Assembly: GCA_963675595.2 (NCBI GenBank)
Contig: CAXXLZ010000002.1
Location: forward strand, 928,001-992,000
Direction: 5' to 3'
Length of the DNA stretch: 64,000 nucleotides
Source: Thermodesulfobacteriota bacterium
GTDB lineage: Bacteria > Desulfobacterota > Desulfarculia > JACQYL01
This document shows positions 5,755 through 54,463 of the stretch, one piece after another. The position numbers and the translations under genes are program-made. The notes below the pieces were generated by a model. It was not told the DNA's origin. It was given only the letters and a program-made list of their open reading frames with translations, and ran no database searches. Position 1 is the first letter of the stretch; each line of letters starts with the position of its first letter.

Positions 5755-6813
5755 TCACTTGGCGTACACTGCTTCGATTGGTTGACTTGCGTCCTCCGTC
5801 AGTCTGTTCGAGTAACGCAGAATGGTAAAATCGTCTCCTACCGCAAAAGCCAAATTACGAGATGCGACCCAAACAGCATTCAGGTTCACTCTCGTTCCGG
5901 AATCCATCTTGCTCAACTCCATACCGTCATAGAACAAAATGGTACCGTCTTCTCCAACGGCGATGACGAAATCCGGAGCGCATCCATGAACCCGACTAAG
6001 CGGCGAGGTCAATTCAGGGAGCGAAACAGACTCCCAACCATCCCCCATATAGCGAAAGAATATCCCGCTGTTTCCATTTCCAAACCAGAAGCCCCAACTC
6101 ATGTCGTAGCCTACCGCATATATTCGATCGCTGGAAATGCCCCAAACGTCGGTAAAACCTCTGACAATTCCAGAATCCTGACCCCTATGAGGAAAAATCT
6201 CTTCAACACCTCCAACATTCTCTGACGTATATGAGGAGCATGAATCACAGGTAAATATTAATGCTTTCTCATAATAATCAAAAGTTGCAAACACACTATC
6301 ATAGTCTTCATGAAAACCAACGGCAGCTATTATGTTTCCGTCACTCCACATATCTTTTATATAAAAGTCGTCATAACTATCAACCATCGTTGTTTCGGAA
6401 TCTTCACATTGGATTCCGTCCTCGACATTTATAAAGGCAGAGCCGCCACAGTAAACATACTTAGTTCCATGTATTATTGTTCCTGGAATGCTCACAAATG
6501 AAATACCGTTAAATAGTTGGTAATCGTTATTAGTTTCTATGATTAGCCCTTGTCGATATAGACCAAGTATTTTCTTAAACTTGCTATCATTATCCGAATA
6601 ATATATATTAATTTTGTTTTTTGATAAATGAATTAATACTCCATCTTCTCCGATAATATAGACATCGTCTTTTGCAGTACCCCATACGTCTACTAGGTCC
6701 CCAGTGTTGTCTCCTAGGTCAACTTGGCTCCATAACGCGCTTGAATCGCAATCAAAGACAACCAGTAGTAGAAGCGGAATCAACACATACAGAAGCAACA
6801 TTCGGTACTTCAT
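5755..6813 (-). CDS. Secreted beta-propeller-like protein (VWG/AVG blade repeats), paralogue of 8965-10014
   Basis: Signal peptide MKYRMLLLYVLIPLLLL with GGAGGA RBS; repeats LVDVWGTAKDDVYIIG, FTDVWGISSDRIYAVG and LNAVWVASRNLAFAVG. Confidence 0.7.
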   Translation of the reverse strand: MKYRMLLLYVLIPLLLLVVFDCDSSALWSQVDLGDNTGDLVDVWGTAKDDVYIIGEDGVLIHLSKNKINIYYSDNDSKFKKILGLYRQGLIIETNNDYQLFNGISFVSIPGTIIHGTKYVYCGGSAFINVEDGIQCEDSETTMVDSYDDFYIKDMWSDGNIIAAVGFHEDYDSVFATFDYYEKALIFTCDSCSSYTSENVGGVEEIFPHRGQDSGIVRGFTDVWGISSDRIYAVGYDMSWGFWFGNGNSGIFFRYMGDGWESVSLPELTSPLSRVHGCAPDFVIAVGEDGTILFYDGMELSKMDSGTRVNLNAVWVASRNLAFAVGDDFTILRYSNRLTEDASQPIEAVYAK

Positions 6814-6898
6814 TGAACTGTCCTCCTCAATTCTTACAAAAGCCGACAACTATGCTGTCAAGCCCCCAGTTTTTGGTCCAGGAGTTATGAGAGTTTTA

Positions 6899-8079
6899 TC
6901 ATGACTCGCGGTTTTCCATCCCCGGCCCTTGGGGCCTCGGCGAAGCCGAGCTGAGCGAGGCGGAGTCGAGGCCCCAAGGGCTCGCCGCGAACTGGGCCGG
7001 GGTCATGTAATTCAATGCACTGTGCGGTCTTTCCTCGTTATAGGCTTTCCGCCATTTGGCGGCCAGAGTCTGCGCTTCCTTGATGTTGTTGAAAATTTCC
7101 ATGTTCAAGAATTCATCCCGAAAACGGCTGTTGAAACTTTCCACGTACCCGTTCTGCCAAGGGGCTCCCGGCTCGACGAAAAGGGTTCCCACTCCCAGGT
7201 CTTTCAGCCAGTTTCTCACCTTTTGGGCTATAAATTCGGGACCGTTATCCGATCGAATGCCCGTTGGAACTCCCCGCTCGCCCATCAATCGGCTCAGCTC
7301 GTTCAAAACGTCTTCACCCGTAATGGAGCGGTTGATCCTCAGGGCCAGGTTTTCCCGAGTAAACTCGTCGACAATGGCCAAGCACTTGAACTGACGGCCG
7401 TCGACCAAGCGGTCATGAATGAAATCCAACGTCCAGACATCATTTGCAAAAGCCGCCTTACGCTTGTTGCACGCATTGGCATCAACTCCCAGGAAGCGTT
7501 TCTTCTTGGCTTTTCGAGGTACCTTGAATCCTTCCTCTTTCCAAAGTCTATGAATTCGCTTGTAGTTTACCGCCCACCCCGCATCACGCAGCAGCCGAGT
7601 GATCCTACGGCATCCAAAACGGGGATGTTCTCCAACCAACCGGTGAAGAGCCTTGATCAGTTCCACCTCATCGTCCCGTTCCTTCGGCTCATAACGTTGG
7701 GTGGATCGGTGTTGACCGGCTACGCGGCAGGCCCGACGCTCTGAAGCGGCATGTTCACTTCGAACATAATCAACCGCTTTCCTACGACGCGCCGGGCTTA
7801 GAAGTTTCCCTCCGCAAGATCCTTCAGCATTGCCTTGTCCAACATCAGATCGGCGACCAGCTTTTTTAAGCGTGCATTTTCCTTTTCCAGTTCTTTTAGC
7901 CGTTTGGCCTCCTCAGCCTTCATCCCCCCATACTGGTTTCGCCACCGGTGGTACGTCGCCTCGCTCACCTCCAGCGATTGGCAAACCTGCGCTATCGTCT
8001 GCCCTGCCGTCAGACGACGGTCCGCGTCTTCAAGTTTCCGGATGATTTGCTCCGCGCTGTGTCTCTTTCTCTTGGCCAT
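6899..8079 (-). CDS. IS3 transposase OrfA/OrfB, probably joined by a -1 programmed frameshift
   Basis: OrfA HTH (MAKRKRHSAEQII...YHRWRNQYGGM...LKELEKENARLKKL, 7798-8079); GGGAAAC slippery site just before the OrfA stop; OrfB rve core W.LDF, DEFTRE, SDNGPEF, PGAPWQNGYVESFN. Confidence 0.9.
6926..6980. repeat. GC-rich palindrome inside the IS3 3' region
   Basis: CCCTTGGGGCCTCG...CGAGGCCCCAAGGG inverted repeat. Confidence 0.7.
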
Positions 8080-8157
8080 GCAAAAAGTCTCCTTCCGTTC
8101 TTTGGGCATTCAGACTCTCATTATACATGGACCAATTATCGGGGGGCATTCCAATGC

Positions 8158-8842
8158 AAAGAATCCGGCCTATAGATATGCCTGCGATCGGAAATAATGG
8201 GGCCTGCAAAACGGAGGATGCCATCACTTAAGACGCAGCCTGACCCGGCACCCGTAGGTCCGGTCTCGGGTAAACACTATGATTGTATACAAAGGTCACA
8301 TCCGCGAAGGCGCACCCGGCAAGCTTCAGGGAGTTGTTCTGTCTCGAACCGGACTCAGGGCCTCCGCCTCCCCCTCTCATCAGAGCTGCCGCCATGCAAT
8401 CCATCTGTCCCAAAGGGCATTCTTACTTCGTAGAGAAATGTGCTCGAATGCCTTTCGGCAAATCAGCGGGATCCGCGGGAATATTGTGCCAACGCCCGGT
8501 TTCTACGTACGTGGTCTGGAAGAGCCTCCTTCGCGCGCCATAGGGGATGGTAGAAGCCAGCCAATCGAGAGCGGCTTTGCCCTTGGTCGAGTTGTAGCCC
8601 TCAACAGAGCACACCTTGATCATGACGGGCCAAATCTTCTTATACTTGGCGATGTCGTTGAGGATATCGCAAACCCAGGTAATCTCCTTACCAATCATGG
8701 TGCTGAGGTAACCCAAGCTCAGCACGTCAGGGAGGTCGCTCAGTATGTAGCACGTCACCTTGCGGACGATGCCGCCGCCATCCTCTTTCTGCTCCTCTTC
8801 GATCTTCTTCGCCTCTGCTCGATGGTCTTCTCTCTTGTTCGA
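8158..8842 (-). pseudogene. Decayed ORF of unknown function (one frame, two internal stops, cut by IS3)
   Basis: ORFs 8423-8758 and 8228-8413 and the flanking sequence share one frame (EAKKIEEEQKEDGGGIVRKVTCYILSD...STK*ECPLGQMDCMAAAL...AAS*VMASS); no start codon or RBS. Confidence 0.45.
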
Positions 8843-8964
8843 TTAGGCATACCGCTATTCCTCTTTTCATGTAAGACAAACGTACACCTATGGTTTGGAA
8901 GGGACCGCAGCCTACCCTTCCGCTTGACAAGGATATTCAGTAAGGCCACAGGGGCATGGAACCT

Positions 8965-10014
8965 TCATTCAATAAAGCCTTCTTCGCTTGTCTGCCTCGT
9001 GCGACGCCGACGGTCGTTCCAGTAACGCAGAATGGTGAAGTCGTCCCCTACGGCAAAAGCCAAATTACGAGATGCAACCCAAACAGCATTCAAGTTCACG
9101 CTTGTTCCGGAATCCATCTTGCTCAACTCCATACCGTCATAAAACAAAATGGTACCGTCTTCTCCAACGGCGATGACGAAATCCGAAGAACACCCATGAA
9201 CTTGACTCAGAGGGCTTGTAGACTCAGGGACCGGGATATCCTGCCATTCCTCCCCGGTATAATGAGTGAAGATTCCTCTATTGTTCTGGTACCAAATGTC
9301 TGAACTTTTATTGTAGCCTACCGCAAATATGTCACTGCTTGAAACACCCCAAACATTTCTATAGCCTGTGGATATGATTCCATGCTGGTATCCTGAATCT
9401 AAAAGCCCAAAACTATGAAAGGTTTCTCCGAACCCTTTCATAGTATCTGTCGTATAAGTAGAACAGGAGTCACAAGGGATGATAAACTCTGCCGCAAAAC
9501 CGGGGTACATGGAACCAACAGCGGCTAACATGCTTCCGTCGGTCCAAATACTCGCGATATAAGTATCTGGAATCCCAATCACGTCAGCAGTGGTTTCTAA
9601 GTCCTCACATTGAATGTCGTACAAGCCTATTGTAAATGCCGAGCTACCACAATAAATAGATTCTGCTCCCCGCATCACCTCATTAGGAATGTCTATAAAC
9701 TGATCCCCATCAAAAATAATATTTCCGTTATTGGTTGATATGACCAAACCCTGTCTTGTTAAGCCTAATATCTTATTAAACTTTTTTCCTGTAATCTCCT
9801 GGAAGACTTCCCACTTATTTGACGAAAGATGAATCAATATTCCGCCTATCCCAATAATATAGACGTTATCTTTCGATGTCCCCCAAACATCTACAAGTCT
9901 CCCACTATATTCCCCTAAGTATATTCGGCTCCAGGAAGCCCATACATTATCGTAAGACAGAACAATCCAATTAAATAGCATGAAAGCAATCATTATTTTC
10001 AGCCAATGCTTCAT
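8965..10014 (-). CDS. Secreted beta-propeller-like protein, paralogue of 5755-6813
   Basis: Likely start MKHWLKIMIAFML (signal peptide); same blade motifs; the last ~60 aa (VIAVGEDGTILFYDGMELSKMDSGT.VNLNAVWVASRNLAFAVGDDFTILRY) are nearly identical to the paralogue. Confidence 0.7.
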   Translation of the reverse strand: MKHWLKIMIAFMLFNWIVLSYDNVWASWSRIYLGEYSGRLVDVWGTSKDNVYIIGIGGILIHLSSNKWEVFQEITGKKFNKILGLTRQGLVISTNNGNIIFDGDQFIDIPNEVMRGAESIYCGSSAFTIGLYDIQCEDLETTADVIGIPDTYIASIWTDGSMLAAVGSMYPGFAAEFIIPCDSCSTYTTDTMKGFGETFHSFGLLDSGYQHGIISTGYRNVWGVSSSDIFAVGYNKSSDIWYQNNRGIFTHYTGEEWQDIPVPESTSPLSQVHGCSSDFVIAVGEDGTILFYDGMELSKMDSGTSVNLNAVWVASRNLAFAVGDDFTILRYWNDRRRRTRQTSEEGFIE

Positions 10015-10318
10015 TGAATGGCCTCCGTACAATAAAGTTACCTGGACTTTCTGATTATTACCGGAACCGATAAATTTTGTCTTAAAAAACCATTGAAGGT
10101 AGTTTGTAGCTTCATTTATGTTTAACATGCGTAAATTAACTGCTTTCTATCAAGAAAATCAGCTTAATTATACTTATAAATAGTTTCAATTAGCATCCAA
10201 ATCTTTTTTAACATAGCCAATTTATGTTTACCGTACTAAGCTTACTATTCTGTATTTTCACTTTTTTGACATCCGTTTGACACATATTCTCATAAAACAT
10301 CATTTAGTTAATAATCAA

Positions 10319-10939
10319 CTAAGGAAGGCTGCTTAACATCACTTCAATCGAAGCTTTAGCACTCTTTTTAACGCACGGAGTCAATGATCCTACTAACCCA
10401 CCTTTAGTTAATCTGATCCAAGAACGGTCTTTCCAAAGCAACCTTCCATCTTCTATATTTATCAAGGATGCGGACACTTCTGCATGACACCATTTTTCAG
10501 CTACAGCATAGGTAGATTCCAAATCTTCAATAAAAATAAAGAGAAGACCTGTCTTATTTTCCATTGTACCTAAAGCCGCAAGCTCCTTAGGGTCCATCTC
10601 GTAAATATCTTCTCCTCTTAAGTGGTTTTTAATTAACAAAGTTTTTTCGAATACAGACTTATGATCATAACCTTTTCCCCGTAATGCATCTATTATCCAT
10701 TCATCTATTTCCTCTATAAATTCTGCGTCGAGATCAACTTTGCCTTTATCGTGTCTTACATCCATCACGCGTAGAATTATTATTTTATTTAATGAATATT
10801 TACCAAAACTTTTATCAAGGTACATTGGTACTCGTCTATTTAAGGTTGTCTTAGTCTTAGGAGTGATGCATCCAGCTGATACTAATATCCCACAAAATAT
10901 CAATAACCATGGCAACATTCTAACTTTCCTACTCATCAT
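10319..10939 (-). CDS. Lipoprotein of unknown function (possible CsgG/LpoB-like alpha/beta fold)
   Basis: Lipobox VSAG-C after a hydrophobic stretch; C-terminal A.V.ASLINIEDGRLLW pattern; AT-rich. Confidence 0.6.
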   Translation of the reverse strand: MMSRKVRMLPWLLIFCGILVSAGCITPKTKTTLNRRVPMYLDKSFGKYSLNKIIILRVMDVRHDKGKVDLDAEFIEEIDEWIIDALRGKGYDHKSVFEKTLLIKNHLRGEDIYEMDPKELAALGTMENKTGLLFIFIEDLESTYAVAEKWCHAEVSASLINIEDGRLLWKDRSWIRLTKGGLVGSLTPCVKKSAKASIEVMLSSLP

Positions 10940-11061
10940 TTCACAACTCCTCGTTGATCCAAGAGGTCTATAGTTGCGGCACGTATAGCGGCGAAGCACA
11001 TCAGGTTTGGCTCCGTCAGCACGATTGAGCTATATTTGCTTTGTCTTTAGTGGAAGGTGTT

Positions 11062-12195
11062 TCAAGGTACGGTCACATCTCTGGCTAAACGGAAGCCTAT
11101 CCTACCGCTGCGATAAGCCTGCAATGCAAAGCCCCTGCGCGCACAACGAAGGCGTCTAGCTGAATTTCGCCAGCTACCCCCTCGATAAACTCGTGCTGTA
11201 CCCGACGATGGACCCGTAGGGTCCGTCACTGAGCCTTCAGGATAATCACCGTACCAATCTTCCACCCACTCGTGTACGTTTCCGTGCATATCATACAGTC
11301 CCCATGCGTTGGGTTTCTTCTTCCCTACCAGAGGCGTTTCCGTACCTGAATTTGCTTCAAACCACGCGTATTCTCCCAGAACACGGTCATCGTTTCCGTA
11401 ACAATATCTTCTTCCAATCCCGCCGGACCTGCAAGCATATTCCCACTCCGCTTCGGTCGGGAGTCTGTATCGTTTCGAGCCTACGGATTCATTCAGTTTG
11501 TTTATGAACTTGCAGCAGTCATCCCAAGAGACCCCTACTGGCGCATCGTCCCACCAATCCTTTGACAAAAGATGAGGCATGGCGTTAAGAAAACTCTTCC
11601 ATTGGAACAATGTCACTTCCGTGGTCTGTAAGTAGAATCCTTTGGTCAGGGTAACCTCGTGCTGAGTCTCCAAACTGCTTCGATCCTCTTCATCCGGTGG
11701 ACTTCCCATCAAGAAAGTCCCGGGAGGAATGTACACGAATTCAAACTTGCTGCCTTTGATTTGGTCGACTATCGAGACCTTGGGCATGTCTATCGGCATC
11801 GCGGACGGCATGGAAGCGGTTGTCGAATCCGGGATGAGCCGAGCCTCAACCACCTGTTTCTCGCCCACTCGCACCTGGATCAAGTCTTTCCAATCTCTGT
11901 ATCCTATCATCTTCATATCGACCCTATGACTTTCTGGAGTAACTTCGGATTTGTGCCCCGGAGTGGTCCCCATGAACTCTCCATCAAGATACCAAAGGGC
12001 TCCAGGCGGTTCACTGCGCACTTCTAGTCCGGTCATTGAAGCCGTGCCCTTATCACCTTGATTGCTCAAAGATGAAACGTCATGGGGACTCACAGGTACT
12101 TCTTCTTGTGACCCAGAAGAACTATCGAAATAGAGGAAAAGCCAAACAAAACTTAAGATCAGGGAATATCTGGCGATATTCGACTTCAAGTTCAT
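11062..12195 (-). CDS. PEGA + FGE-sulfatase (SUMF1/COG1262) protein, TagR-like
   Basis: Signal/TM; PEGA (LEVRSEPPGALWYLDGEFMGTTP); FGE motifs IPPGTFLMGS, RLPTEAEWEYACR, KPNAWGLYDMHGNVHEW, RGGSW and GFRL. Confidence 0.85.
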   Translation of the reverse strand: MNLKSNIARYSLILSFVWLFLYFDSSSGSQEEVPVSPHDVSSLSNQGDKGTASMTGLEVRSEPPGALWYLDGEFMGTTPGHKSEVTPESHRVDMKMIGYRDWKDLIQVRVGEKQVVEARLIPDSTTASMPSAMPIDMPKVSIVDQIKGSKFEFVYIPPGTFLMGSPPDEEDRSSLETQHEVTLTKGFYLQTTEVTLFQWKSFLNAMPHLLSKDWWDDAPVGVSWDDCCKFINKLNESVGSKRYRLPTEAEWEYACRSGGIGRRYCYGNDDRVLGEYAWFEANSGTETPLVGKKKPNAWGLYDMHGNVHEWVEDWYGDYPEGSVTDPTGPSSGTARVYRGGSWRNSARRLRCARRGFALQAYRSGRIGFRLARDVTVP

Positions 12196-12403
12196 ATCTT
12201 CTCCTTCCCATGAAGCCGTCCCGAGAAACCTATTTCGTATAGTCGCATAGCACCGACAAAGCGGTCTTTTGTTCAGGGAGGGCGTAAAATAGTTTATTGA
12301 TATGAGCATAAAATAGGTTAAGGCACGATACTTAATACCACATGTTTCTTAATTTGATGGGTCATCGCTGATAGTGTAGTTAATTCATGCTATTTGCACT
12401 AAT

Positions 12404-14452: not shown

Positions 14453-14490
14453 TGAACCACCCTTTCGATGCATCAGGCACTGGATTGGAT

Positions 14491-14895
14491 TTACTCCTTG
14501 CTTTGAACTTCTTCCAAGTGCTTCTTCGATTCCTCGATATCGGTCAACATTTCTTGAGTGCTTTCTTTTTCTTTCTCGGACTGCGCCTTGGCATTAGCAA
14601 GTGTCGCATCCGCCCAGGCCTTTTCAGCCAAAAAATAGGCCTGTTCGTATTCACCCTTGATCAGCAGGTTTTTCGCTTCGTATAGCCCGTCTTCTGCCTC
14701 CATAAGTTCAGGGGGAGGCTCTTGTATATTCTTGCTATTCTTTCTGGCTTCAAGAAGCGTTGTCTCTGCCTTGGTTATCATATTCTCGGTATCGATTCTC
14801 AGTTTCGGAGAACAAGAGACTTGAATAAGTATTAGGAAGGTTAGCATGAATAAACTAAATAGGACTCTTGATCTATCATATCCCAAATAAACCAT
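14491..14895 (-). CDS. DUF4398-like lipoprotein
   Basis: Lipobox-like IQVS-C; PELMEAEDGLYEAK...GEYEQAYFLAEKAWADATLANAKA matches the DUF4398 pattern. Confidence 0.78.
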   Translation of the reverse strand: MVYLGYDRSRVLFSLFMLTFLILIQVSCSPKLRIDTENMITKAETTLLEARKNSKNIQEPPPELMEAEDGLYEAKNLLIKGEYEQAYFLAEKAWADATLANAKAQSEKEKESTQEMLTDIEESKKHLEEVQSKE

Positions 14896-14922
14896 AATTC
14901 TCCCCCAATTTAGAAGTAAATT

Positions 14923-22038: not shown

Positions 22039-22197
22039 GTAAATATCGGAGATTAGACCATTATATTAGGATATTCAGGAGCTAATTTATTTAACGTATG
22101 GCAATAACTTTTTACATCAAGGATGAGGTATCTCCACAGACAGGTATAAATAGTTACGTGCCCCGACCCTCCCGCCGCGAATAACCCCCAACGCTCA

Positions 22198-22329
22198 GGC
22201 CCGGGTTCTTCGCTCATGGGCTTCGCCGCATGCGCAGGCTCCGCCCTCTTCGCTCAGAACCTCGGCCCTCACCTGCAAGGAAAACCGCACAGGGTAAAGG
22301 GGTAAAAGGGATCAGGGGTAAGACCTCAG
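22198..22329 (-). repeat. 132-bp 3' element, copy A (IMH-like pyrimidine tract + GC hairpin)
   Basis: Identical to 24517-24648; covers the last codons of the gene and the downstream sequence. Confidence 0.9.
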
Positions 22330-24306
22330 CAGACGCGCGCCGAGGTTGCCGCCGCGGACGTCCGGCGTGAGGCCGCCGCGATTCGCCGAACGGCAGTACC
22401 CCGCGTAGTAGTACCAGCCGCCGCCGCGAAGAACCCGGTAGGAGCCTGAAGCGGGACCCGTGGGATCCGTAACGGATCCACTGGGATAGTCGCCGAACCA
22501 GTCTTCCACCCACTCCCAGACGTTTCCGTGCATGTCGTACAACCCCCAGGCATTGGCCGCCTTTTGAGCCACGGGATGTGTCATGTCTCCGGAATTGTGA
22601 CAATACCACCCCATGGCGTACAGGTTCGGATCATAACCGCAGACGGTTTCCGTGATGCCGCCATTGGCAAAGGCCGTCGTGGAACCCGCCCGAGCCGCGC
22701 ACTCCCACTCCGCTTCCGTGGGCAACCGGTACGTGCCCTCGCCCAGTTGATTCATTGCCGCCACAAAATCCTGGACGTCGTCCCACGATACAGATTCCAC
22801 GGGACAATCATCTCCACAAGAACTGAACGAGGAGGGATTGCTCCCCATGACCGCTTTCCACTGCCCCTGCGTAATCTCCGTGGTCTGCAGGTAATATCCT
22901 TGGGTCAGCGTCACCTGGTGTTGCGTCTCATCGCTGTCCCGGCCCGGCTCATCCGTGGGACTGCCCATGGTGAACGTGCCCGGCGGGATATATTTGAAGG
23001 TCATGCCGAGAGAGTTGGTGAACGTGTCCGGTGGCGACGTTTGCAGGAATTTCGACCAGGCCTGTGTCGGTCGGGGGGACCCGGAAAACGGCGCTTCCAC
23101 GCATCTTTCCAGCGAATCCATGCCGGCTGTGCCGGAACCCGAAAAGCTCATGGTCAGGTGGTACGGTTTGCCCCCTAACTCATCCGCATCGATGCCGTCG
23201 GCGGCGTTGGAATCCAGGAACACGTAGTAGTCCGCCAGGTTCGAGGTTCCGATGGCAACAGCCGAACCCGTGTCGTAGGTTTGGACGTAGTAGTTCATCT
23301 GCGCGGCGCCGCAGGAAGGAGACTTCCAGATCCCGTGATTGGCCGGGGTCGAGCCCAGGCCGTTGGTCCTGGATATGACGTAGGTCGCCGGGGAGCCGAA
23401 CCGGGTCAATACGGCGTTCCCGTGACTTCCGTCCGTAAACGTGACGGACAGATGGTGTCCCATTCCGGCGTAGTCGCTCACATCGATGCCGTCTTGAATA
23501 TCGGCGTCGATGAACACGTAGTACTCCGTCAGATCGGGCGTGGCCAGGATCAAGGCCGAACCGTCCACATAACTCTGGATGTAGAAGTTCATGGAAAGCC
23601 CCGCGTCCTTCCATATCCCGTCGTAGATTACCGACCACGAACCGACCTGAATTTGAAAGCTCCTGGGCACGGAAGTCCGGTCATCGCTATCCCTTACGCT
23701 GCAGGTCGCCGTATAAGAGCCCCCCTGCGCGTAGGTGTGACTGGTTTGTCCGTCGGAACGGATGTCGGAGGTCCCGTCGTCGAACCGAAAAACGTACTCT
23801 ACAATGGGCGATCCATAGGGGTCGTATCCCGAACAGGTGCAATCGACCTGCAACGGTGCGTTCCCCGACGCGGGTGAACAAGAAAACGCCGAGACTACGG
23901 GATCCTCGCAAACTTCACCGATTTCCGGAACATAGGTGCAACCGGAGGGGCCCAGATTGGCACGAATCTCTATCGGCTCTAACACGGTGGAGCTCCCGTC
24001 GGCATGAAAGGCCGTGCAGACCGCGAGAAACTCGCCGGCGCCCAAATACGTGTGCGCCACATAACCTCGGGAGGAGGATTCAAAAGAGCCGTCGCCGAAG
24101 TCGAAAAAGTATTCAACCGCGCCCGGAGCCGTATCGGGTACGGCGCAGCCGAAGGATACCGTCAACGGAGCCGGACCGGCCGCCGGATCGGGACGAACGT
24201 TGAAAGCCGAGGTTGCAAAAGACACCGGTGGACTCAGCGTCGAGGCAACGAGGCATCCAAAGACAGTAAAAAGGAGCATTCTCGGTAACGAATAGGGTGA
24301 TCTCAT
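22312..24306 (-). CDS. Secreted 2xPKD + 2x unknown ~95-aa domain + FGE-sulfatase (CLec-fold) protein A; candidate DGR target
   Basis: Likely start MRSPYSL with GGAGAG RBS; PKD motifs G.APLTVSF, YFFDFGDG and HTY..G.Y; FGE motifs RLPTEAEWE, NAWGLYDMHGNVWEW and RGGGW. Confidence 0.85.
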   Translation of the reverse strand: MRSPYSLPRMLLFTVFGCLVASTLSPPVSFATSAFNVRPDPAAGPAPLTVSFGCAVPDTAPGAVEYFFDFGDGSFESSSRGYVAHTYLGAGEFLAVCTAFHADGSSTVLEPIEIRANLGPSGCTYVPEIGEVCEDPVVSAFSCSPASGNAPLQVDCTCSGYDPYGSPIVEYVFRFDDGTSDIRSDGQTSHTYAQGGSYTATCSVRDSDDRTSVPRSFQIQVGSWSVIYDGIWKDAGLSMNFYIQSYVDGSALILATPDLTEYYVFIDADIQDGIDVSDYAGMGHHLSVTFTDGSHGNAVLTRFGSPATYVISRTNGLGSTPANHGIWKSPSCGAAQMNYYVQTYDTGSAVAIGTSNLADYYVFLDSNAADGIDADELGGKPYHLTMSFSGSGTAGMDSLERCVEAPFSGSPRPTQAWSKFLQTSPPDTFTNSLGMTFKYIPPGTFTMGSPTDEPGRDSDETQHQVTLTQGYYLQTTEITQGQWKAVMGSNPSSFSSCGDDCPVESVSWDDVQDFVAAMNQLGEGTYRLPTEAEWECAARAGSTTAFANGGITETVCGYDPNLYAMGWYCHNSGDMTHPVAQKAANAWGLYDMHGNVWEWVEDWFGDYPSGSVTDPTGPASGSYRVLRGGGWYYYAGYCRSANRGGLTPDVRGGNLGARLLRSYP

Positions 24307-24516
24307 GCGCTCTCCCAAAGGCCCAAAGATTAACGGATCACGGTGCGATTGGATTTGCCCCGCTATCTCCCTTTCCAGTCGGGTTAGTGAAACCATCATG
24401 GACCGACTAGCTTCGGACGGGATTTCATACGGGGTCAAATATGGCTGTAAATTCAGCCTCGCTTCGCTCGGCTTTCTTTTCCCTTTATCCTTACGCCGGG
24501 AACGTCTCCCCGTTCC

Positions 24517-24648
24517 GGCCCGGGTTCTTCGCTCATGGGCTTCGCCGCATGCGCAGGCTCCGCCCTCTTCGCTCAGAACCTCGGCCCTCACCTGCAAGGA
24601 AAACCGCACAGGGTAAAGGGGTAAAAGGGATCAGGGGTAAGACCTCAG
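24517..24648 (-). repeat. 132-bp 3' element, copy B
   Basis: Identical to 22198-22329. Confidence 0.9.
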
Positions 24649-26634
24649 AAGGCGCAAACCGAGGTGGCCGTCGCGGGTGACCGGCGCGCGGATGAAGCGA
24701 AAGGCCGAACGACAGTACAACGCGTAGTTGTCCCAGCTGCCGCCGCGACACACCCGGTGGGAGCCCGACGACGGACCCGTGGGATCCGTTACGGATCGAC
24801 TCGGATAAGTGCCGTACCAGTCCTGACACCACTCCAACACATTGCCGTGCATGTCGTAGAGTCCCCAGGCATTGGCCGACAAGCTGCCCGTAGGAATCGT
24901 CTTTCCTCGGTCCTCACCTTCCGGACAGCCGGACATCGGATAATCCCCGTCATAATTCGCATCGTCGGTTGACAGACAGTCTCCAAAAGCGAAAGGAGTG
25001 GTGGAGCCCGCCCTTGCGGCGTACTCCCACTCCGCTTCCGTGGGCAACCGGTACGTGCCCTCGCCCAGTTGATTCATTGCCGCCACAAAATCCTGGACGT
25101 CGTCCCACGATACAAATTCCACGGGACAATCATCTCCACAAGAACTGAACCAGGAGGGATTGCTCCCCATGACCGCTTTCCACTGCCCCTGCGTAATCTC
25201 CGTGGTCTGCAGGTAATATCCTTGGGTCAGCGTCACCTGGTGTTGCGTCTCATCGCTGTCCCGGCTCGGCTCATCCGTGGGACTGCCCATGGTGAACGTG
25301 CCCGGCGGGATATATTTGAAGGTCATGCCGAGAGAGTTGGTGAACGTGTCCGGTGGCGACGTTTGCAGGAATTTCGACCAGGCCTGTGTCGGTCGGGGGG
25401 ACCCGGAAAACGGCGCTTCCACGCATCTTTCCAGCGAATCCATGCCGGCTGTGCCGGAACCCGAAAAGCTCATGGACAGGTGGTACGGTTTGCCCCCTAA
25501 CTCATCCGCATCGATGCCGTCGGCGGCGTTGGAATCCAGGAACACGTAGTAGTCCGCCAGGTTCGAGGTTCCGATGGCAACAGCCGAACCCGTGTCGTAG
25601 GTTTGGACGTAGTAGTTCATCTGCGCGGCGCCGCAGGAAGGAGACTTCCAGATCCCGTGATTGGCCGGGGTCGAGCCCAGGCCGTTGGTCCTGGATATGA
25701 CGTAGGTCGCCGGGGAGCCGAACCGGGTCAATACGGCGTTCCCGTGACTTCCGTCCGTAAACGTGACGGACAGATGGTGTCCCATTCCGGCGTAGTCGCT
25801 CACATCGATGCCGTCTTGAATATCGGCGTCGATGAACACGTAGTACTCCGTCAGATCGGGCGTGGCCAGGATCAAGGCCGAACCGTCCACATAACTCTGG
25901 ATGTAGAAGTTCATGGAAAGCCCCGCGTCCTTCCATATCCCGTCGTAGATTACCGACCACGAACCGACCTGAATTTGAAAGCTCCTGGGCACGGAAGTCC
26001 GGTCATCGCTATCCCTTACGCTGCAGGTCGCCGTATAAGAGCCCCCCTGCGCGTAGGTGTGACTGGTTTGTCCGTCGGAACGGATGTCGGAGGTCCCGTC
26101 GTCGAACCGAAAAACGTACTCTACAATGGGCGATCCATAGGGGTCGTATCCCGAACAGGTGCAATCGACCTGCAACGGTGCGTTCCCCGACGCGGGTGAA
26201 CAAGAAAACGCCGAGACTACGGGATCCTCGCAAACTTCACCGATTTCCGGAACATAGGTGCAACCGGAGGGGCCCAGATTGGCACGAATCTCTATCGGCT
26301 CTAACACGGTGGAGCTCCCGTCCGCATGGAAGGCCGTGCAGACTGCGAGGAACTCCCCGGCCCCTATATACGTATGCTCGGCCAAGCCGCGGGTGGAGAA
26401 TTCAAAAAACCCGTCACCGAAGTCGAAAAAGTATTCCGTCGCACCTTGAATCGTTTCAGGTACCGCGCAGTCGAAGGAGACCGTCAACGGTGCCGGACCC
26501 GCCGCCGGATCGGGACGGGCAAAAAGGCCTTCGTTCTCCGAGGACGATGCGACGGTTCCAGCGAAGGCGACAAAGGTTGCGAGCAAGAGGATCAGCATAC
26601 GAAGGCCTCTGGGAAGCGCGTCTCTTGTACTCAT
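24631..26634 (-). CDS. Secreted 2xPKD + 2x unknown domain + FGE-sulfatase protein B; candidate DGR target
   Basis: Likely start MSTRDAL with AGGAG RBS; central ~1.3 kb nearly identical to gene A (offset 2322); different C-terminal half of the FGE domain. Confidence 0.85.
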   Translation of the reverse strand: MSTRDALPRGLRMLILLLATFVAFAGTVASSSENEGLFARPDPAAGPAPLTVSFDCAVPETIQGATEYFFDFGDGFFEFSTRGLAEHTYIGAGEFLAVCTAFHADGSSTVLEPIEIRANLGPSGCTYVPEIGEVCEDPVVSAFSCSPASGNAPLQVDCTCSGYDPYGSPIVEYVFRFDDGTSDIRSDGQTSHTYAQGGSYTATCSVRDSDDRTSVPRSFQIQVGSWSVIYDGIWKDAGLSMNFYIQSYVDGSALILATPDLTEYYVFIDADIQDGIDVSDYAGMGHHLSVTFTDGSHGNAVLTRFGSPATYVISRTNGLGSTPANHGIWKSPSCGAAQMNYYVQTYDTGSAVAIGTSNLADYYVFLDSNAADGIDADELGGKPYHLSMSFSGSGTAGMDSLERCVEAPFSGSPRPTQAWSKFLQTSPPDTFTNSLGMTFKYIPPGTFTMGSPTDEPSRDSDETQHQVTLTQGYYLQTTEITQGQWKAVMGSNPSWFSSCGDDCPVEFVSWDDVQDFVAAMNQLGEGTYRLPTEAEWEYAARAGSTTPFAFGDCLSTDDANYDGDYPMSGCPEGEDRGKTIPTGSLSANAWGLYDMHGNVLEWCQDWYGTYPSRSVTDPTGPSSGSHRVCRGGSWDNYALYCRSAFRFIRAPVTRDGHLGLRLLRSYP

Positions 26635-26860
26635 GAGGGTCTCCTGTGCGTTTTCGTTTTTCGGAACGCCCGAAAGGGGTAGAAGCGGAAATTTCATGTC
26701 CGTTTTCTTTTGCCCAAAACGGATGGAGTGGATTCTCGGAGAAAAAACGAGCGACCGATGAACGTATCTGCTCACTGCCGAGCCTCTCTGATCATTCGGA
26801 TCATTCAAACTGCGACGCCCTCGTCGGAGGTTCCGGGTTTCCGGATGGTCGCACATGAGG

Positions 26861-29800
26861 TTAGTGATTCGACTTTGCGCGTTGCCTCGCAGCCAGGAGA
26901 TCGGCAAGGGATTCTCGTGTAAGCTGTTCGGCCTTGCGGTTCCATTCGGCGTCCCCGTAATAACTCACGGAAACCTCGTTCGCGAACGCTTTGCCCGTGT
27001 GTAAATCCACCAGGGCGGTGTATATTTTGGAATCAATGGTCGGACTGTACGGATTTTCTGCGGTGAGTCGGACCGCGTAGGAAATGACTGCGTCCGCCCC
27101 TGCCGCCGCTCCCAAGCTTCGCATGGTTTCCGTGTCGGGTCGCGGATCGTTTTCAGACCATCTGTGAGTCCAGACACCGGTTGACCGGGTCTTTTCATTC
27201 AAGATCGGAGTACCAACGAGCGCGGGGTGGAATCCGGCGAAATCGTACGCGGAGGCAACGGCCGTGATTTTGACAAACCCGGGCAAGATTTCAGATAGAG
27301 CTTTGAGAAAGTAATTCAGAAGGCGGTCGTGTTCTGTCGGAAGATCAAAGGGCAGGATCACCAGCTTGACGTTGGAATCCACAGCCGGTTTGACGGCCGG
27401 CCGCTGATCGTCGGCTTTCACAGCGGCAGCCGGTTCAGGCTTTTTCCCGATCGATACGGAAACATGATGCGATCTTGCGCGTTGCCTCGCGGCAAGAAAA
27501 TCGGCAAAGGATACTCGTGTGAGTTGTTCTGCCTTGCGGTTCCATTCGGCGTCTCCGTAATAACTCACGGAAACCTCGTTCACGAACGCTTCGCCCGTAT
27601 GTACATTCACCAGGGCGGTGCATATCTTGGAATCAATGGTCGGGCTGTACGGATTTTCTGCGGAGAGTCGGACCGCGTAGGAAATGACTGCGTCCGCCCC
27701 TGCCGCCGCGCCCAAGCTTCGCATGGCTTCCGTGTCGGGTCGTGGATCGTTTTCAGACCATATGTGGTTCAAGACACCGCTTGACCGGGTCTTTTCATTC
27801 AAGTTCGGAGTGTCAGCGAGCGCAGGGTGGAATCCGGCGAAATCATACGCGGAGGCAACGGCCGTGATGTCGGCATGACCGGGCAAAATTTCAGATAGGG
27901 CTTTGAGAAAGTACTTCAGATGGCGGTCGTGTTCTGTCGGAAGATCAAAGGGCAGGATCACCAGCTTGACGTTGGAATCCACAGCCGGTTTGACGGCCGG
28001 CCGCTGATCGTCGGCTTTCAGAGCGGCAGCCGGTTCGGGCTCTTTTCCCATCGATATGGGAGACGGCTCGAAAGCGAGCAAATCCCCCTCTTGCTGAGCC
28101 CGTTTTCTTGACACGGCCACGGCTTCTCTTACAGCTTCCGCTTTGGCCCGGATCGCCGGGCTACAATCCAACAGGTCCTTTTTGCCTTGAAGTAACTTCT
28201 CCAGTGTCGCTTGCACCTGCCCGCATGCTTCCAAGCTCTCGCAACTGGTCCCCTTCCCGGCCAGGTCTTCCAGTTTTCCCAGAAGAATCCCTTCTCGGCA
28301 GGACGCCATGCGACTGGTCACATGCGCTCGTGCCGCCTCGTTGAACGAGGAGAGTTCTCTGCAAGCGGACAGCTGTTCGATCTCCCCAAGGGCCCTCTCG
28401 TACAGCTCTTTTCCCTGCTCGAAACGACCCTGTTTCTCGGCCTTGTTCGCAGCGTCCAGCAAACCCGTCAGCCGTTTATGCGCCTCCAACAAGTCTCGAT
28501 AGCTCTTAACGGTTTCGGACTGGTATCCGCGTGTCTCCGAGTATCTCACGTACTCCGAGATGAGCTTCCCCAGCTCGTCCGTTTCAGCCCCGCCGTACCC
28601 CGGCGACTTGAAGGAAATCCTATCCAACGACTCCTTCATCTCCCTCGCGATCCGGAGCAATTCCCACTCTTCCTGCGCCTTTCTTTTAGACACTGCCGCC
28701 GCTGCTCTTATGGCTTCCGCTTTGGCCCGGATCGCCGAGCTGGATTCCACCAACTCCTTTTGGCCTTGGAGCAACTTCTCCAGAGCAGTGTGCACTGCCC
28801 CGCATGCTTCAACACTCCTACACCTGGAAGCGTCACCGGCCAAATCCTCCAGTTGCGCCAAAAGCATCCCTTCGCGGCACGACGCCAGCCTGCCTCTTAC
28901 GTACTCTCCCGCCGCCTCATTAAAGGAGGCGATTTCCTTGTGGGAAGACAGCTGTTCGATTTCCCCAAGGGCCTTTTCGTAGAGTTCCTCGCCCTGCTCG
29001 AACCGTCCTTGATTCTCAGCCTTTTCCGCCGCATCCAGAAGACCCGTCAGCCGTTTATGGGCCTCGATCAGATCATTATAGCTTTTGGCGGTTTCGGGCT
29101 TGTATCCTTGGGTACTCGAGTACTTCCCGTATTTCGATACCAGACTGCCCAGCTCATTCATCTCATCCGAACCGTATCCCGGCGATTGGAAGGACACCTT
29201 TCCAAACAACTCATCCATTTCCCTCACGATGCTGGCCAGCTCTCCCTCTGCCAGCGCCCGTCTTTTGGAAGCGGCCACGGCTCTTTCTAAGGCTTCAGCT
29301 TTGGTCCGGACGGCCGAACTGGAATCCATTAGTTCCTTTTGGCCTTGGAGCAGCTTCTCCAGAGCCGTTTTCAACTCCCCGCACGCTTTGACGCTCCCGC
29401 ATTCCGAGGCCCTGCTCCCCAAATCCTCCAAGCGCCCCAAGAGGACCCCCTCGCTGCAGGACTGCATGCGACTCCTCACATGTCGTTGTGCCGCGTCGAT
29501 GAAGGTCGCCGGCGCCTTGTAGGCGGACAGGCCTTCGACCTCCATGAGCGCCTTCTCGTAGAGTTCCTCGCCCTGATCGAACCGTCCCTGATTCTCCGCC
29601 TTTTCGGCCGCATCCAGAAGCTCCGTCAGCCGTTTATGTCCCTCGATCAGATCATTATAGCTTTTGGCGGTTTCGGCCTGGTATCCTTGGGTACTCGAGT
29701 ACTTCCCGTATTTCGAGACCAGACTGCCCAGCTTATCCATCTCAGCCGAACCGTATCCCGGCGATTGGAAGGACACCTTTCCCAACAACTCATCCATTTC

Positions 29801-35038: not shown

Positions 35039-35115
35039 GAAAAACTCAGTTAGTTTAGTTTTTCTTTTGAATCTTTTTAAAATAGTAGTGCATATTTTAA
35101 TCCTAACTAATTATG

Positions 35116-35736
35116 TCAAAACTTAGGTATATCTATAGACATGTATAAATATCTAACGGCATCTACGCCATCATCACGAATACGCTCATCATTGGATAGA
35201 TTACATAAACTTCTCTTCAAATTGTCATAACGATTCTTTATCTCCATAACATTTCTTGGAATGTAAACGCCTGTTTCTTCTCCTAAAACCATACTTTTAC
35301 TATCAATCCAGATCAGCACGGGAAACACAATTCCGGCATCGAACACTTTAGCAAGCTTGCCATATTCCAATGTCATAAATAATCGATCTTTTGAACCGAA
35401 ATCCTCAATATGCGATTTCCAGCGTAGATTTCAGTTTTCACGTTGGGAGCAGGGAACCGCAATGACGGATAATGCCTGCTCTTTCTTGGCTAGATACTCA
35501 ATAGATTTTAGGATTTGCCTGTCACTTTCTATTTCAGGAAGAAAGAAAAATACGTCGGTTAACGGAGTTTTAAGCACATCCTTGGATTGAATCGTTCGGC
35601 CTCTCATGTCCTCAAAGGAAAACGGCGCTACTTGGTGTCCCTGTTTCACCAGGGCGGAAGCCGGCCCGGCGCTCAAGAAAAAGATCATGCAGATACAGAA
35701 GATCGCACACTGAAATAGGGTCATTATAGATTTCAT
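35116..35736 (-). pseudogene. Short third paralogue of the redoxin-like N-domain, with an in-frame TGA at 35431-35433
   Basis: The two ORFs share a frame (REN*NLRWKSHIEDFGSKDRLFMTLEY); the TGA aligns with Trp in both giant proteins. Confidence 0.8.
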
Positions 35737-35952: not shown

Positions 35953-37173
35953 ATGGAATCTCCCCGGAGAAGCGGACCAATAGCCCAGCCTGATCGATTT
36001 GGAAGATACGAGATCGTTTCGCTTCTGGGCCGAGGCGCAATGGGCGTTGTTTACAAAGCTTGGGACCCCGTGGGTTCGAGAGAGCTTGCGGTAAAAGTAC
36101 ATAAAATGGACGTGGTGGAAGGCTCGGCCGAAGAAACACGTCTTCTGAAAGAAGCCCGCGCCATGGCGCAACTGAGTCACGGCAACATCGTGACCTTGTA
36201 CGACATCGGCAGGGAAGACGAATCTCTGTTTCTTGCCATGGAGTACATTCGCGGCCATAACCTGAGCCATATGCTTAAAGACAAGAAACGATTCTCCCCA
36301 TTTCAGGCGGCGGAATTCGGGGCGCAGATCGCCGACGCTCTCGATTACGCCCACAGATTGGGAATTGTCCATCGTGATATCAAACCGGCCAATATATTGG
36401 TTAACGAAGACGGGACTCCCAAGATCGCCGATTTCGGCATTGCGCGGATCATTGACCTCGGACTGTCTATGGACAACAGGATCGTGGGGACTCCCGCGTA
36501 CATGTCTCCGGAACAGGTGAGCGGACAACCCGTAGACGGACGCAGCGACCTGTTTTCCCTGGGTGTCATCATCTATGAAATGGCCACTCAACAGAAACCT
36601 TTCGACGGTGAAACCTTTACCGAAGTGACCGTGCAAATCGTTGGGCGCGATCCCCGTCACCCTCGAGCCATCGACCGACACATCCCAAAGCCTCTTGGAG
36701 ACATTATCATCAAGGCCCTGCAAAAGGACCCCTTGAAGCGTTTTCAGACGGGCCGGGAAATGGCGGAGGCTCTTCGCGCTTTTGCTCACGGTACCGGCAA
36801 GCCCCGCTCGTCGACCTCTGCAACGAAGTCCTTCTTGATCACTGTTCCCGTCCTCCTTGCCATGCTTGCAGGCGGCTGGTATTTCTATGTTTACAAGCAG
36901 CAGACTCCCATCGAAACCCCGGCGATCCAAACGCAAGAACCTGCTTTCCTTTCTTATGTAACCGCCATCACGTATCCCGACGGGGCGGAAGTGTGGCTGG
37001 ACGGCAAGTTAAAGGGGATCAGCCCCACCGTGCTCGAGTTGACACCCGGCGCACACGACCTGAAGTTTGTCAAAGAAGGCTACAAGACCAAGGAAGCCGG
37101 CATTTTCATTCGGGAAGACAAAGACCAGGACCTTGAAATCGATCTCGAGCCACTGGGCGCTTCAGAAAACTAA
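35953..37173 (+). CDS. Hanks-type Ser/Thr kinase with TM and C-terminal PEGA domain (PpkA/PknB-like)
   Basis: GRGAMGVVY, AVK, HRDIKPANIL, DFG, GTPAYMSPEQ; TM; PEGA (TYPDGAEVWLDGKLKGISP). Confidence 0.93.
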   Translation: MESPRRSGPIAQPDRFGRYEIVSLLGRGAMGVVYKAWDPVGSRELAVKVHKMDVVEGSAEETRLLKEARAMAQLSHGNIVTLYDIGREDESLFLAMEYIRGHNLSHMLKDKKRFSPFQAAEFGAQIADALDYAHRLGIVHRDIKPANILVNEDGTPKIADFGIARIIDLGLSMDNRIVGTPAYMSPEQVSGQPVDGRSDLFSLGVIIYEMATQQKPFDGETFTEVTVQIVGRDPRHPRAIDRHIPKPLGDIIIKALQKDPLKRFQTGREMAEALRAFAHGTGKPRSSTSATKSFLITVPVLLAMLAGGWYFYVYKQQTPIETPAIQTQEPAFLSYVTAITYPDGAEVWLDGKLKGISPTVLELTPGAHDLKFVKEGYKTKEAGIFIREDKDQDLEIDLEPLGASEN

Positions 37174-46600: not shown

Positions 46601-46606
46601 ATCGTG

Positions 46607-48670: not shown

Positions 48671-48705
48671 TTCCTACACAGATATTTGAGATACACATAA
48701 ATCAT

Positions 48706-50914: not shown

Positions 50915-51018
50915 GTTAATCTCCCATCTTGAGCCAAGCTTTTCGCAAAGCGGCTGTCGGAGCCACCTGTCCCAATCCAACGGCCCAAGCCTCCCGAAAG
51001 GGAGGCTCTTGATATCTG

Positions 51019-54159: not shown

Positions 54160-54172
54160 CCTCTTTCTCCAA

Positions 54173-54449: not shown

Positions 54450-54463
<14 letters not shown>
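54173..54463 (-). CDS. Small hypothetical protein
   Basis: Likely start MTFNKTREDM overlaps the clpV stop; co-oriented. Confidence 0.5.

Follow-up and report, generated by a model that had tools for sequence, protein, structure and literature searches.

What does a type VI secretion system (T6SS) do with some 30 kb of genes for predicted exported proteins that lie inside its own cluster? The question is raised by a T6SS island of a Thermodesulfobacteriota bacterium (GenBank assembly GCA_963675595.2; 98% complete, 3 contigs), from which we analysed a stretch of 64,000 nucleotides (nt) of contig CAXXLZ010000002.1 (G000:C2:928001-992000, hereafter the window), annotating all its long open reading frames (ORFs) by Pfam and NCBIfam scans. 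The block in question, here called the arm (5755-35736), consists of minus-strand genes that diverge from a plus-strand gene for a kinase with a PEGA domain, and it encodes a TssJ protein, two giant repeat proteins and three proteins with the FGE-sulfatase domain, that is, of the formylglycine-generating enzyme (FGE)/C-type lectin (CLec) fold. What is new here, as read from the sequence, is the footprint of a diversity-generating retroelement (DGR) in FGE genes embedded in a T6SS cluster. Our argument proceeds from what is observed, namely the gene content of the arm, the domain builds of its proteins, the uniqueness of its TssJ, the DGR footprint and the embedding of all this inside the cluster, to a tentative reading in which the arm would provide a T6SS gated by phosphorylation with an envelope scaffold and with sensors, among them TagR-like binding proteins diversified by the DGR. 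We favour this reading over its rivals, although we consider it slightly less likely than not to be right.

The island holds one complete T6SS on the minus strand, with the 13 core genes TssA-TssM plus PAAR (Pfam/NCBIfam) and the full T6SS-i component set. TssC, Hcp, TssE, TssF, TssG, TssH, VgrG, TssK, TssL, TssM and PAAR are encoded in the window, TssA and TssB just past its right edge and followed by insertion sequence (IS) elements, and the TssJ domain is in the arm. There it occupies residues 555-677 of a protein of 689 amino acids (aa), as indicated by matches to PF12790 (50.1 bits, cut-off 27) and TIGR03352 (37 bits, cut-off 31.6) and by alignment with solved TssJ chains in the PDB, the best being TssJ1 (PA0080) of Pseudomonas aeruginosa (E 0.0025). 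The domain is preceded by a signal sequence and a coiled coil of about 450 aa: residues 101-550 are to 77% E, K, R, A, L, Q or D and include no proline, and SMC-like coiled-coil models match residues 276-560 (NCBIfam). No cysteine follows a small residue past the hydrophobic segment, where a TWA-type cleavage site can be read by eye; because a lipobox is thus absent, the protein is by its sequence not a lipoprotein. Canonical TssJ proteins, such as SciN/TssJ of enteroaggregative Escherichia coli (EAEC) and P. aeruginosa TssJ1, are like the C-terminal ~120 residues of the arm protein in that these match TssJ models and structures; however, the canonical protein is an outer-membrane lipoprotein of about 160-300 aa which binds the periplasmic C-terminal domain of TssM and whose gene adjoins tssK, whereas the arm protein, with its 689 aa, has no lipobox, carries a long coiled coil N-terminal to the domain and is encoded ~30 kb away from tssK.

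The original prediction had taken the TssJ domain as the tie between the arm and the T6SS, and this tie holds, the 689-aa protein being the sole PF12790 match in the genome and the usual tssJ place being otherwise filled. In the three of 80 TssM-related loci that have a detectable TssJ, tssJ lies immediately upstream of tssK; here the corresponding slot is taken by a PEGA pseudokinase and a cytoplasmic orphan of 403 aa. Since TssJ is distal to the FGE and giant genes, these fall inside the bounds of the cluster. The stop codon of giant2 is separated by 27 bp from the start of a gene for a small DUF4398 protein, which in turn lies 17 bp from tssJ on the same strand, and these gaps suggest that giant2, the DUF4398 gene and tssJ share a single transcript. 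In a sample of 400 other genomes of the phylum, 43 TssJ matches occur in 42 genomes (44 matches in the 401 genomes overall). The open frames that hold these 43 are 163-301 aa long but for two from a single genus, which have 444-445 aa; the one of these two inspected is an ordinary lipoprotein of ~190 aa after stop-free GC-rich sequence. A near-length word search with the TssJ domain across 5.8 billion proteins returned only the 689-aa protein itself. The TssJ of the arm, with its predicted stalk, its missing lipobox and its displaced gene, is thus real and, so far, unique.

The second line of evidence comes from the two tandem paralogs FGE1 and FGE2 (96.9% identical over 1527 bp), proteins of 660-670 aa built of two PKD domains, a common middle region and an FGE-sulfatase domain. 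When the 3' ends of the arm FGE genes were compared with the genome, two matches outside FGE genes were found, one of them directly after the stop codon of a reverse transcriptase (RT) ORF. This match is the template repeat of a complete DGR cassette (table 1) 2.3 Mb from the arm, with scores of 71.3 bits for RVT_1, 67.8 bits for bAvd (cut-off 40) and 72 bits for HRDC; a group II intron RT adjoins the cassette. The template repeat is rich in AAC codons and reads in frame as an asparagine-rich stretch. An ungapped scan of both genome strands that required a match of at least 80% at the 87 non-adenine positions of the template yielded eight sites, namely the template itself, a second template copy and six variable-repeat-like sites, of which five are the 3' ends of full-length FGE genes and the sixth ends an FGE gene fragment.

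The differences from the template are concentrated at its adenines. The variable repeat (VR) of FGE2 is changed at 23 of 35 adenine sites and at 3 of 87 other sites (Fisher p 3.6e-13), that of FGE1 at 23 of 35 and 9 of 87 (p 1.8e-9), and the VR of the cassette's own target at 22 of 35 and 1 of 87 (p 3.2e-14). For a remote variable protein, more than 80% of the mismatches are expected at template adenines, mostly at codon positions 1-2 (PMC7517822). FGE2 has 23 of its 26 mismatches (88%) at template adenines and 22 of 26 at these codon positions, and identity to the template core is 96/122 for FGE2 and 90/122 for FGE1, in both cases above the 50% criterion. The last 21 nt of the FGE2 repeat equal the template exactly, and the ~120 nt that follow the repeat are the same in FGE1 and FGE2, differ little from the corresponding flank of the cassette's target and are distinct from the flank of the template, as is expected of cis-acting homing elements. 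By the criteria of PMC7517822, FGE2 qualifies as a remote DGR variable protein, and FGE1, whose non-adenine changes include the GC-rich 3' end, qualifies only as a decayed or homologous copy. The DGR may still be acting on the arm today. Among contigs assembled from three DNA runs, FGE-family paralogs map to the region 22040-24900, with breaks at the shared VR flank, and one alternative contig with 38 differences has ~84% identity to FGE2, the same distance as the paralogs.

The third FGE protein of the arm combines PEGA with FGE-sulfatase; among its paralogs it is closest (45-50% identity) to the PEGA-FGE portions of caspase-PEGA-FGE proteins, a family of DGR targets, and the 3' end of its gene has no template-repeat match in the genome comparison or the scan. 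Genome-wide, the FGE-sulfatase domain has 19 matches, several of them in predicted exported caspase-PEGA-FGE proteins, and the arm family recurs at about 15 other places; eight of the 13 PEGA matches are in FGE-fold proteins and two in the two T6SS kinases. The second template-repeat copy differs from the first at four positions of the 122-nt core. It is preceded by 60 nt similar to the 3' end of the RT gene, but by no RT, and another caspase-PEGA-FGE gene is found 277 nt upstream of it; it is probably a DGR without its former RT. The gene fragment among the scanned sites ends in a chimera of a VR-like body (20/35 adenine and 2/87 other sites changed) and the 3' flank of the template.

The receptors of the arm had been predicted to be variable, and this word is supported by the DGR variable repeats of FGE2 and, in a less clear form, of FGE1. 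In having a VR at the 3' end of a CLec/FGE gene, adenine-specific mismatches to an Asn-codon-rich template, a shared cis flank, a location remote from the RT, an IS nearby and paralogs fused to caspase, the arm genes are like the FGE-type CLec remote targets described from cyanobacteria and multicellular bacteria (PMC7517822, PMC10907252); they differ in encoding predicted exported PKD-PKD-X-FGE proteins embedded in a T6SS cluster. The idea that the arm proteins are active formylglycine-generating enzymes was rejected, as DGR targets of this fold have been described as binding proteins, which by analogy these would be. The terms 'type VI' and 'secretion' are absent from the available text of PMC10907252, as are 'T6SS' and 'secretion system' from that of PMC11661182, and the titles and abstract openings of the listed papers naming both diversity-generating retroelements and type VI secretion (a scope that leaves supplementary tables of DGR targets aside) contain no link between the two.

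What could such binding proteins be connected to? The cluster encodes the core set of a threonine phosphorylation pathway, comprising a Hanks-type kinase and a PP2C phosphatase (scores in table 1) and a protein with an FHA domain (70.3 bits). The PpkA-like kinase (406 aa) has intact HRD and DFG motifs, one transmembrane helix at 293-313 and a PEGA ectodomain, and its gene converges on the FHA gene. In a second PEGA kinase-like protein, the catalytic aspartate of HRD and the aspartate of DFG are both replaced, and it is therefore a pseudokinase. The FHA domain lies C-terminally (residues 404-467), after ~390 residues with a faint Hsp70/actin-like match, unlike in the TagH model, which has its FHA domain near the N-terminus (model positions 23-94).

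In the H1-T6SS of P. aeruginosa, TagR is a periplasmic FGE-sulfatase-superfamily protein acting on PpkA, its FGE domain being modelled as a binder of the PpkA ectodomain (PMC13713981), so that the role assigned to TagR in the original prediction stands in the literature. Three predicted exported proteins of this superfamily are encoded with the PpkA-like kinase of the island, their likeness to TagR being at domain level only. Compared with the TagQRST-PpkA-PppA-Fha1-TagF pathway (PMC13713981), the island is alike in its membrane kinase with an extracytoplasmic domain, its PP2C and FHA proteins and a putative TagF-like protein, and in encoding a predicted exported FGE-sulfatase-fold protein with the T6SS. 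It differs in having a kinase with a PEGA ectodomain, an FHA protein whose FHA domain is C-terminal, a PEGA pseudokinase besides, and three FGE proteins, two of them DGR targets and all paralogs of a resident family. The PpkA of P. aeruginosa has a vWA-like domain. A literature search pairing the PEGA domain with type VI secretion returned nothing related, and a complex prediction for the PEGA-FGE protein (residues 85-415) with the ectodomain of the PpkA-like kinase (316-406) scored 0.01, a value that speaks neither for nor against a contact. By analogy, control of firing would run through the PpkA-like kinase.

The two giants, finally, are built of a signal or anchor sequence, an N-domain of ~170 aa, an array of helical units of exactly 193 aa each (11 in giant1, 10 in giant2) and C-terminal domains unrelated to each other, that of giant1 being ~190 aa long and duplicated and that of giant2 an orphan. 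The units are 49-100% identical among themselves, units 1-5 of giant2 equal units 1 and 3-6 of giant1 at 98-100%, and the two arrays align in register with 86% DNA identity; Tandem Repeats Finder, with its maximum period of 500, missed the period of 579 bp. The unit is modelled as an all-helical bundle (pLDDT 86), for which Foldseek found nothing in the PDB at E <=0.001 and only weak TPR-like rows. As leads only, two consecutive units (386 aa) reached a best score of 0.84, to TPR clusters, in the ESM Atlas, and the N-domain scored 0.94-0.95 to clusters including TlpA and thioredoxin-like ones; as modelled, the N-domain looks like a periplasmic TlpA-type thioredoxin fold without CxxC. An AlphaFold model of the C-terminal 388 aa of giant1, made without an alignment, was unusable (pLDDT 35). 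A HMMER profile of 16 of the 21 units (five giant2 units 98-100% identical to giant1 units were left out) matched 13 of 1.84 billion representative proteins at E <=0.001, namely giant2 and 12 weak matches, of which the seven scanned are all generic TPR proteins. Searches of 40 related genomes gave no instance of the unit, a giant paralog is likewise missing from the rest of the genome, and by these searches the giants are orphans. They are probably envelope scaffolds or spacers. T6SS positioning factors of the TslA/TagM1 type (PMC9251886) are exported, alpha-helical, TPR-like and encoded with a T6SS, as the giants are predicted to be; the giants are 10 to 20 times larger, have exact 193-aa units and show no sequence relation to them, TslA-like genes being defined by a location upstream of tssBC and a high isoelectric point (PMC9251886).

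The remainder of the arm is in keeping with what the original prediction had described, a co-oriented block diverging from the PEGA kinase gene, with the gene content as stated (table 1). Export signals were read from Kyte-Doolittle hydropathy and by eye, without a signal-peptide predictor: a single N-terminal hydrophobic segment is present in 10 arm proteins out of 11 in the scan, which did not include the 101-aa ORF, the stretches of the PEGA-FGE and 387-aa proteins being read by eye, as no segment exceeds the hydropathy threshold. Of the lipoproteins expected in the arm, the 226-aa protein has a lipobox, while that of the DUF4398 protein is non-canonical and the TssJ protein has none. The 226-aa lipoprotein has no family match and no paralog in the genome, and BLASTP comparisons of the giant1 C-terminal domain with this lipoprotein and of the TssJ-protein N-terminus with the DUF4398 protein were not significant. 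The 387-aa propeller-like protein has weak paralogs on contigs C1 and C2; it and its 364-aa paralog, one on either side of the IS3 element, are nearly identical over their C-terminal ~75 aa and have the same terminator-like hairpin, which suggests that a duplication or gene conversion took place recently around the IS3 insertion.

Table 1. Features of the window (positions counted from its first letter) and DGR-related sites elsewhere on the contig (G000:C2 coordinates).
Feature	Position	Strand	Evidence or remark
Propeller-like protein, 364 aa, predicted exported, paralog of 387-aa protein, beyond IS3	5755-6849	-	no family match
IS3-family insertion sequence, two ORFs	6899-8109	-	rve/rve_3/HTH_21 and HTH_Tnp_1
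Propeller-like protein, 387 aa, probable start 10014	8965-10128	-	weak Ycf48-like PSII_BNR, E 0.023
Lipoprotein, 226 aa, orphan, probable start 10939	10319-10999	-	lipobox by eye; GC 0.37
PEGA + FGE-sulfatase-fold protein	11062-12309	-	PEGA 43.6 bits, FGE-sulfatase 148.7 bits
Stalked TssJ, 689 aa	12404-14473	-	PF12790, TIGR03352
DUF4398 small protein, predicted exported or lipoprotein	14491-14895	-	PF14346 42.5 bits
Giant2, 2371 aa	14923-22038	-	193-aa period
FGE2, PKD-PKD-X-FGE/CLec, probable start 24306	22312-24609	-	PKD, FGE-sulfatase
FGE2 variable repeat, ORF residues 722-762	22325-22446	-	template-repeat comparison
FGE1, tandem paralog of FGE2, probable start 26634	24631-26907	-	PKD, FGE-sulfatase
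FGE1 variable-repeat-like end, partly decayed	24644-24765	-	template-repeat comparison
Giant1, 2725 aa	26861-35038	-	193-aa period
Truncated third copy of giants' N-terminal domain, 101 aa	35431-35736	-	read from translation
PpkA-like Ser/Thr kinase, PEGA ectodomain	35953-37173	+	Pkinase 199.9 bits, PEGA 37.5 bits
T6SS core and regulators	37193-63990	-	Pfam/NCBIfam
FHA protein	37193-38638	-	FHA
Slot upstream of tssK	45389-48259	-	pseudokinase and 403-aa orphan
PEGA pseudokinase	46607-48259	-	PEGA; HRD/DFG Asp replaced
117-aa ORF	48352-48705	-	no Pfam, NCBIfam or PADLOC family match
PP2C phosphatase	49660-50379	-	PP2C_2 57.5 bits
PAAR	50615-50980	-	PAAR motif only; probably 99 aa from internal Met
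RDD-family membrane protein	51019-51555	-	no effector or adaptor family match
VgrG	51702-53639	-	~70 residues without family assignment after Gp5_trimer_C
Two orphan ORFs (147 and 111 aa)	53716-54508	-	no family match
TolB-like PD40 beta-propeller lipoprotein	60699-61706	-	lipobox by eye; GC 0.41
Chimera at end of FGE fragment	G000:C2:903225-903346		VR-like body, template 3' flank
Complete DGR cassette	G000:C2:3248301-3252769	-	exported caspase-PEGA-FGE target, HRDC ORF, bAvd ORF, RT, template repeat
Template repeat, directly after RT stop	G000:C2:3248304-3248425		template-repeat comparison
Second template-repeat copy	G000:C2:4724298-4724419		template-repeat comparison

Read from the right, the core genes run TssA, TssB, TssC, Hcp, the PD40 lipoprotein, TssE, TssF, TssG and ClpV, followed by the two small orphan ORFs, VgrG, the RDD membrane protein, PAAR, the PP2C phosphatase, an exported protein of 277 aa and the 117-aa ORF, and then by the PEGA pseudokinase, the 403-aa orphan, TssK, TssL, TssM, the TagF-like protein and the FHA protein. 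Slots beside vgrG and PAAR often house effector, immunity or adaptor genes, and it is there that the RDD protein (between vgrG and PAAR) and the two orphan ORFs (between clpV and vgrG) are encoded; together with the 277-aa and 117-aa ORFs they would be the first to consider as effector candidates. The PD40 gene sits between hcp and tssE, and the 117-aa ORF, between the pseudokinase and the 277-aa protein, has 42 tblastn matches elsewhere in the genome (41-48% identity in the top eight). Promoter and terminator scans gave results near shuffle expectation.

The cluster had been described as one with no toxin extension on VgrG or PAAR and no recognisable toxin or adaptor gene, and this description withstood a wider search. 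VgrG ends ~70 residues past Gp5_trimer_C, and PAAR is limited to its motif. Among the window ORFs of at least 100 aa that were scanned, none matched an Rhs, amidase, lipase, nuclease or adaptor family, and the whole genome has no RHS_repeat match and single copies of Hcp, VgrG and plain PAAR, as well as of TssC and TssJ. A canonical tssJ or effector genes just outside the window, which would have spoken against the original prediction, were looked for and neither turned up, the DNA there holding only tssA, tssB and transposases. PADLOC gave no credible match for 14 arm or cluster proteins or protein parts. The giants, considered as T6SS effectors, were rejected on account of their predicted Sec-type N-termini; such signals are normally absent from T6SS cargo.

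As to its origin, the island is foreign to the host genome, judging from the sequence comparisons, and the T6SS with its arm is horizontally acquired. IS elements border the whole island on both sides; no T6SS was found in four genomes of the same family and order, and 11 of the 40 relatives searched have one. The GC content forms an island-wide mosaic, with accessory genes of 0.34-0.43 (giant end domains, the lipoprotein, the 147-aa ORF, PD40, RDD, the 277-aa protein and DUF4398) interleaved with core genes of 0.49-0.59; FGE1 and FGE2 stand at 0.59-0.60 next to giant end domains of 0.34-0.39, the genome average being 0.56. The closest kin of FGE1 and FGE2 are resident DGR-target paralogs. Other T6SS loci were compared in two sets, one of 80 loci around TssM relatives (<=38% identity, 10-kb flanks) and one of 40 same-phylum tssJ loci with ~10 kb on each side, several cut by contig ends, the latter covering 40 of the 42 other genomes with TssJ (G240 and G301 were left out). 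Of the 40 same-phylum loci, six encode a PpkA-like kinase, the best four with 44-46% identity, and in the one inspected (G346:C4:53000-72999) the kinase has a CHASE2 ectodomain and lies beside a FecR/LysM protein, not PEGA or FGE; kinase gating therefore recurs, with other sensors.

On the favoured reading, the arm would supply the sole TssJ, unlipidated on a ~450-residue coiled coil and encoded in a tight row with the DUF4398 protein and giant2, two giant helical-repeat proteins as an envelope scaffold, and three FGE/C-type-lectin-fold binding proteins, one invariant with PEGA and two remote DGR targets whose ligand-binding tips could be rewritten at template adenines. By analogy with TagQ/TagR and PpkA, the FGE-fold proteins would recognise a ligand, either foreign or from the envelope itself, at the cell surface or in the periplasm, and then act on the PEGA ectodomains of kinase and pseudokinase; the PpkA-like kinase would then phosphorylate the FHA protein, with PP2C and TagF counteracting, and the T6SS would assemble. 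Export beyond the inner membrane, contact between FGE proteins and kinase, and an effect on firing are the steps that we infer here. In favour of this reading, the variable proteins are encoded in the interval from the gating kinase gene to the tssJ of the cluster, and this interval holds no mobile-element gene, no transposase gene being found from 14.9 to 35.7 kb in the window ORF scans. A bolder version, in which DGR-rewritten lectin-fold proteins feed the PEGA kinases as a reprogrammable trigger or target recognition device and the machine stands on the scaffold of stalked TssJ and giants, we consider unlikely.

Several results weigh against the favoured reading. The TagF-like protein scores below the cut-offs of both models (TagF_N 25.7 bits against 27, TIGR03373 28.1 bits against 41.2), no ABC transporter family match to stand for TagS/TagT was found among the cluster ORFs (Pfam/NCBIfam), and no TagQ counterpart emerged from libraries that hold no TagQ model, the PD40 and 226-aa proteins being the sole lipoprotein candidates. 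FGE1 has 23 of its 32 mismatches (72%) at template adenines, below the expected 80%. As to the co-occurrence of the arm families with tss clusters elsewhere, a check named with the original prediction, relatives of the FGE, giant, DUF4398, lipoprotein and propeller proteins were found in none of the 80 TssM-related and none of the 40 same-phylum tssJ loci (tblastn, E 1e-5); island and giants are known from one genome only, on which all our conclusions rest, and the foreign origin of the island counts in the same direction. Moreover, FGE-family paralogs elsewhere in the genome lie, where examined, beside caspase, CHAT-TPR and NERD-kinase genes and not beside a T6SS. Given the GC content of FGE1 and FGE2 and their resident paralogs, a recent insertion without a functional link to the T6SS is plausible.

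This last point leads to the main rival, which we hold to be somewhat less likely than the favoured reading: giant1, FGE1 and FGE2, perhaps with giant2, would form an independent DGR-diversified system of the envelope, serving in adhesion, in conflict or in the recognition of kin or phages, and recombination would have brought it into the space that separates the kinase gene from the tssJ operon, with only the DUF4398 protein and TssJ, and perhaps the PEGA-FGE protein, serving the T6SS. The recurrence of the FGE family at about 15 further genomic places would agree with this, as would its kin which, where examined, are fused to caspase and PEGA and sit beside CHAT-TPR and NERD-kinase genes, matching the conflict-system contexts in which DGR-target FGE genes of multicellular bacteria have been described (PMC10907252, PMC7159879). 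The GC mosaic of the block, the near-identical duplicates FGE1 and FGE2, the truncated N-terminus of a third giant, which indicates repeated rearrangement, and the absence of such genes from all 120 T6SS loci examined elsewhere point the same way. However, giant2 abuts the DUF4398 gene and tssJ with the narrow gaps given above and on the same strand, mobile-element genes are absent inside the block, and the giants, found nowhere else in the genome or in the searched databases, have no known existence apart from this T6SS.

Two further explanations divide the arm differently. If its role were purely structural, the giants, the DUF4398 protein and the TssJ on its stalk would adapt the membrane complex to an unusually wide or layered envelope and the FGE proteins would have no gating role. 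The proline-free coiled coil of ~450 residues, the 10-11 rigid helical units per giant, the vacated tssJ slot by tssK and the failure of Pfam IcmF_C to be detected in TssM at E 0.01, which fits a diverged TssJ-TssM interface, all suit such an adaptation, but it leaves three FGE-fold genes and two PEGA kinases of the cluster unexplained, and we regard it as improbable. More improbable still, to the point that we give it little credit, is that the FGE-fold proteins act in the periplasm as immunity proteins like Tsi3, directed against incoming effectors or against one of this T6SS that has escaped recognition, with the DGR widening the range neutralised. An FGE-domain family of T6SS immunity proteins, often found in effector-immunity modules, has been described (bioRxiv 10.1101/2021.05.21.445229), and the arm FGE proteins carry predicted export signals; yet no effector candidate adjoins them, their neighbours have Sec-type signals, and FGE1 and FGE2 are multidomain proteins with PKD whose closest kin are caspase-fused DGR targets.

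Should the favoured reading of a sensor and scaffold arm hold, the island would provide the first candidate for an evolvable T6SS trigger, with DGR-diversified binders encoded beside the gating kinase. To our knowledge, the decision to fire is understood in detail for very few T6SSs, and the sensors there are fixed proteins; as far as we know, too, the cellular function of the DGRs of multicellular bacteria is still untested, and the island would link these DGRs to a machine whose activity is easily followed, for example by Hcp secretion, by imaging of the sheath or by phosphorylation of the FHA protein. If even the reprogrammable version were true, the stimulus for T6SS firing could evolve within generations. 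The other components of the arm bear on questions of their own: an unlipidated TssJ on a coiled coil of ~450 residues matters for the assembly of the membrane complex, and predicted exported giants of 2400-2700 aa, made of exact 193-aa units and without relatives among 1.84 billion representative proteins, matter for envelope architecture.

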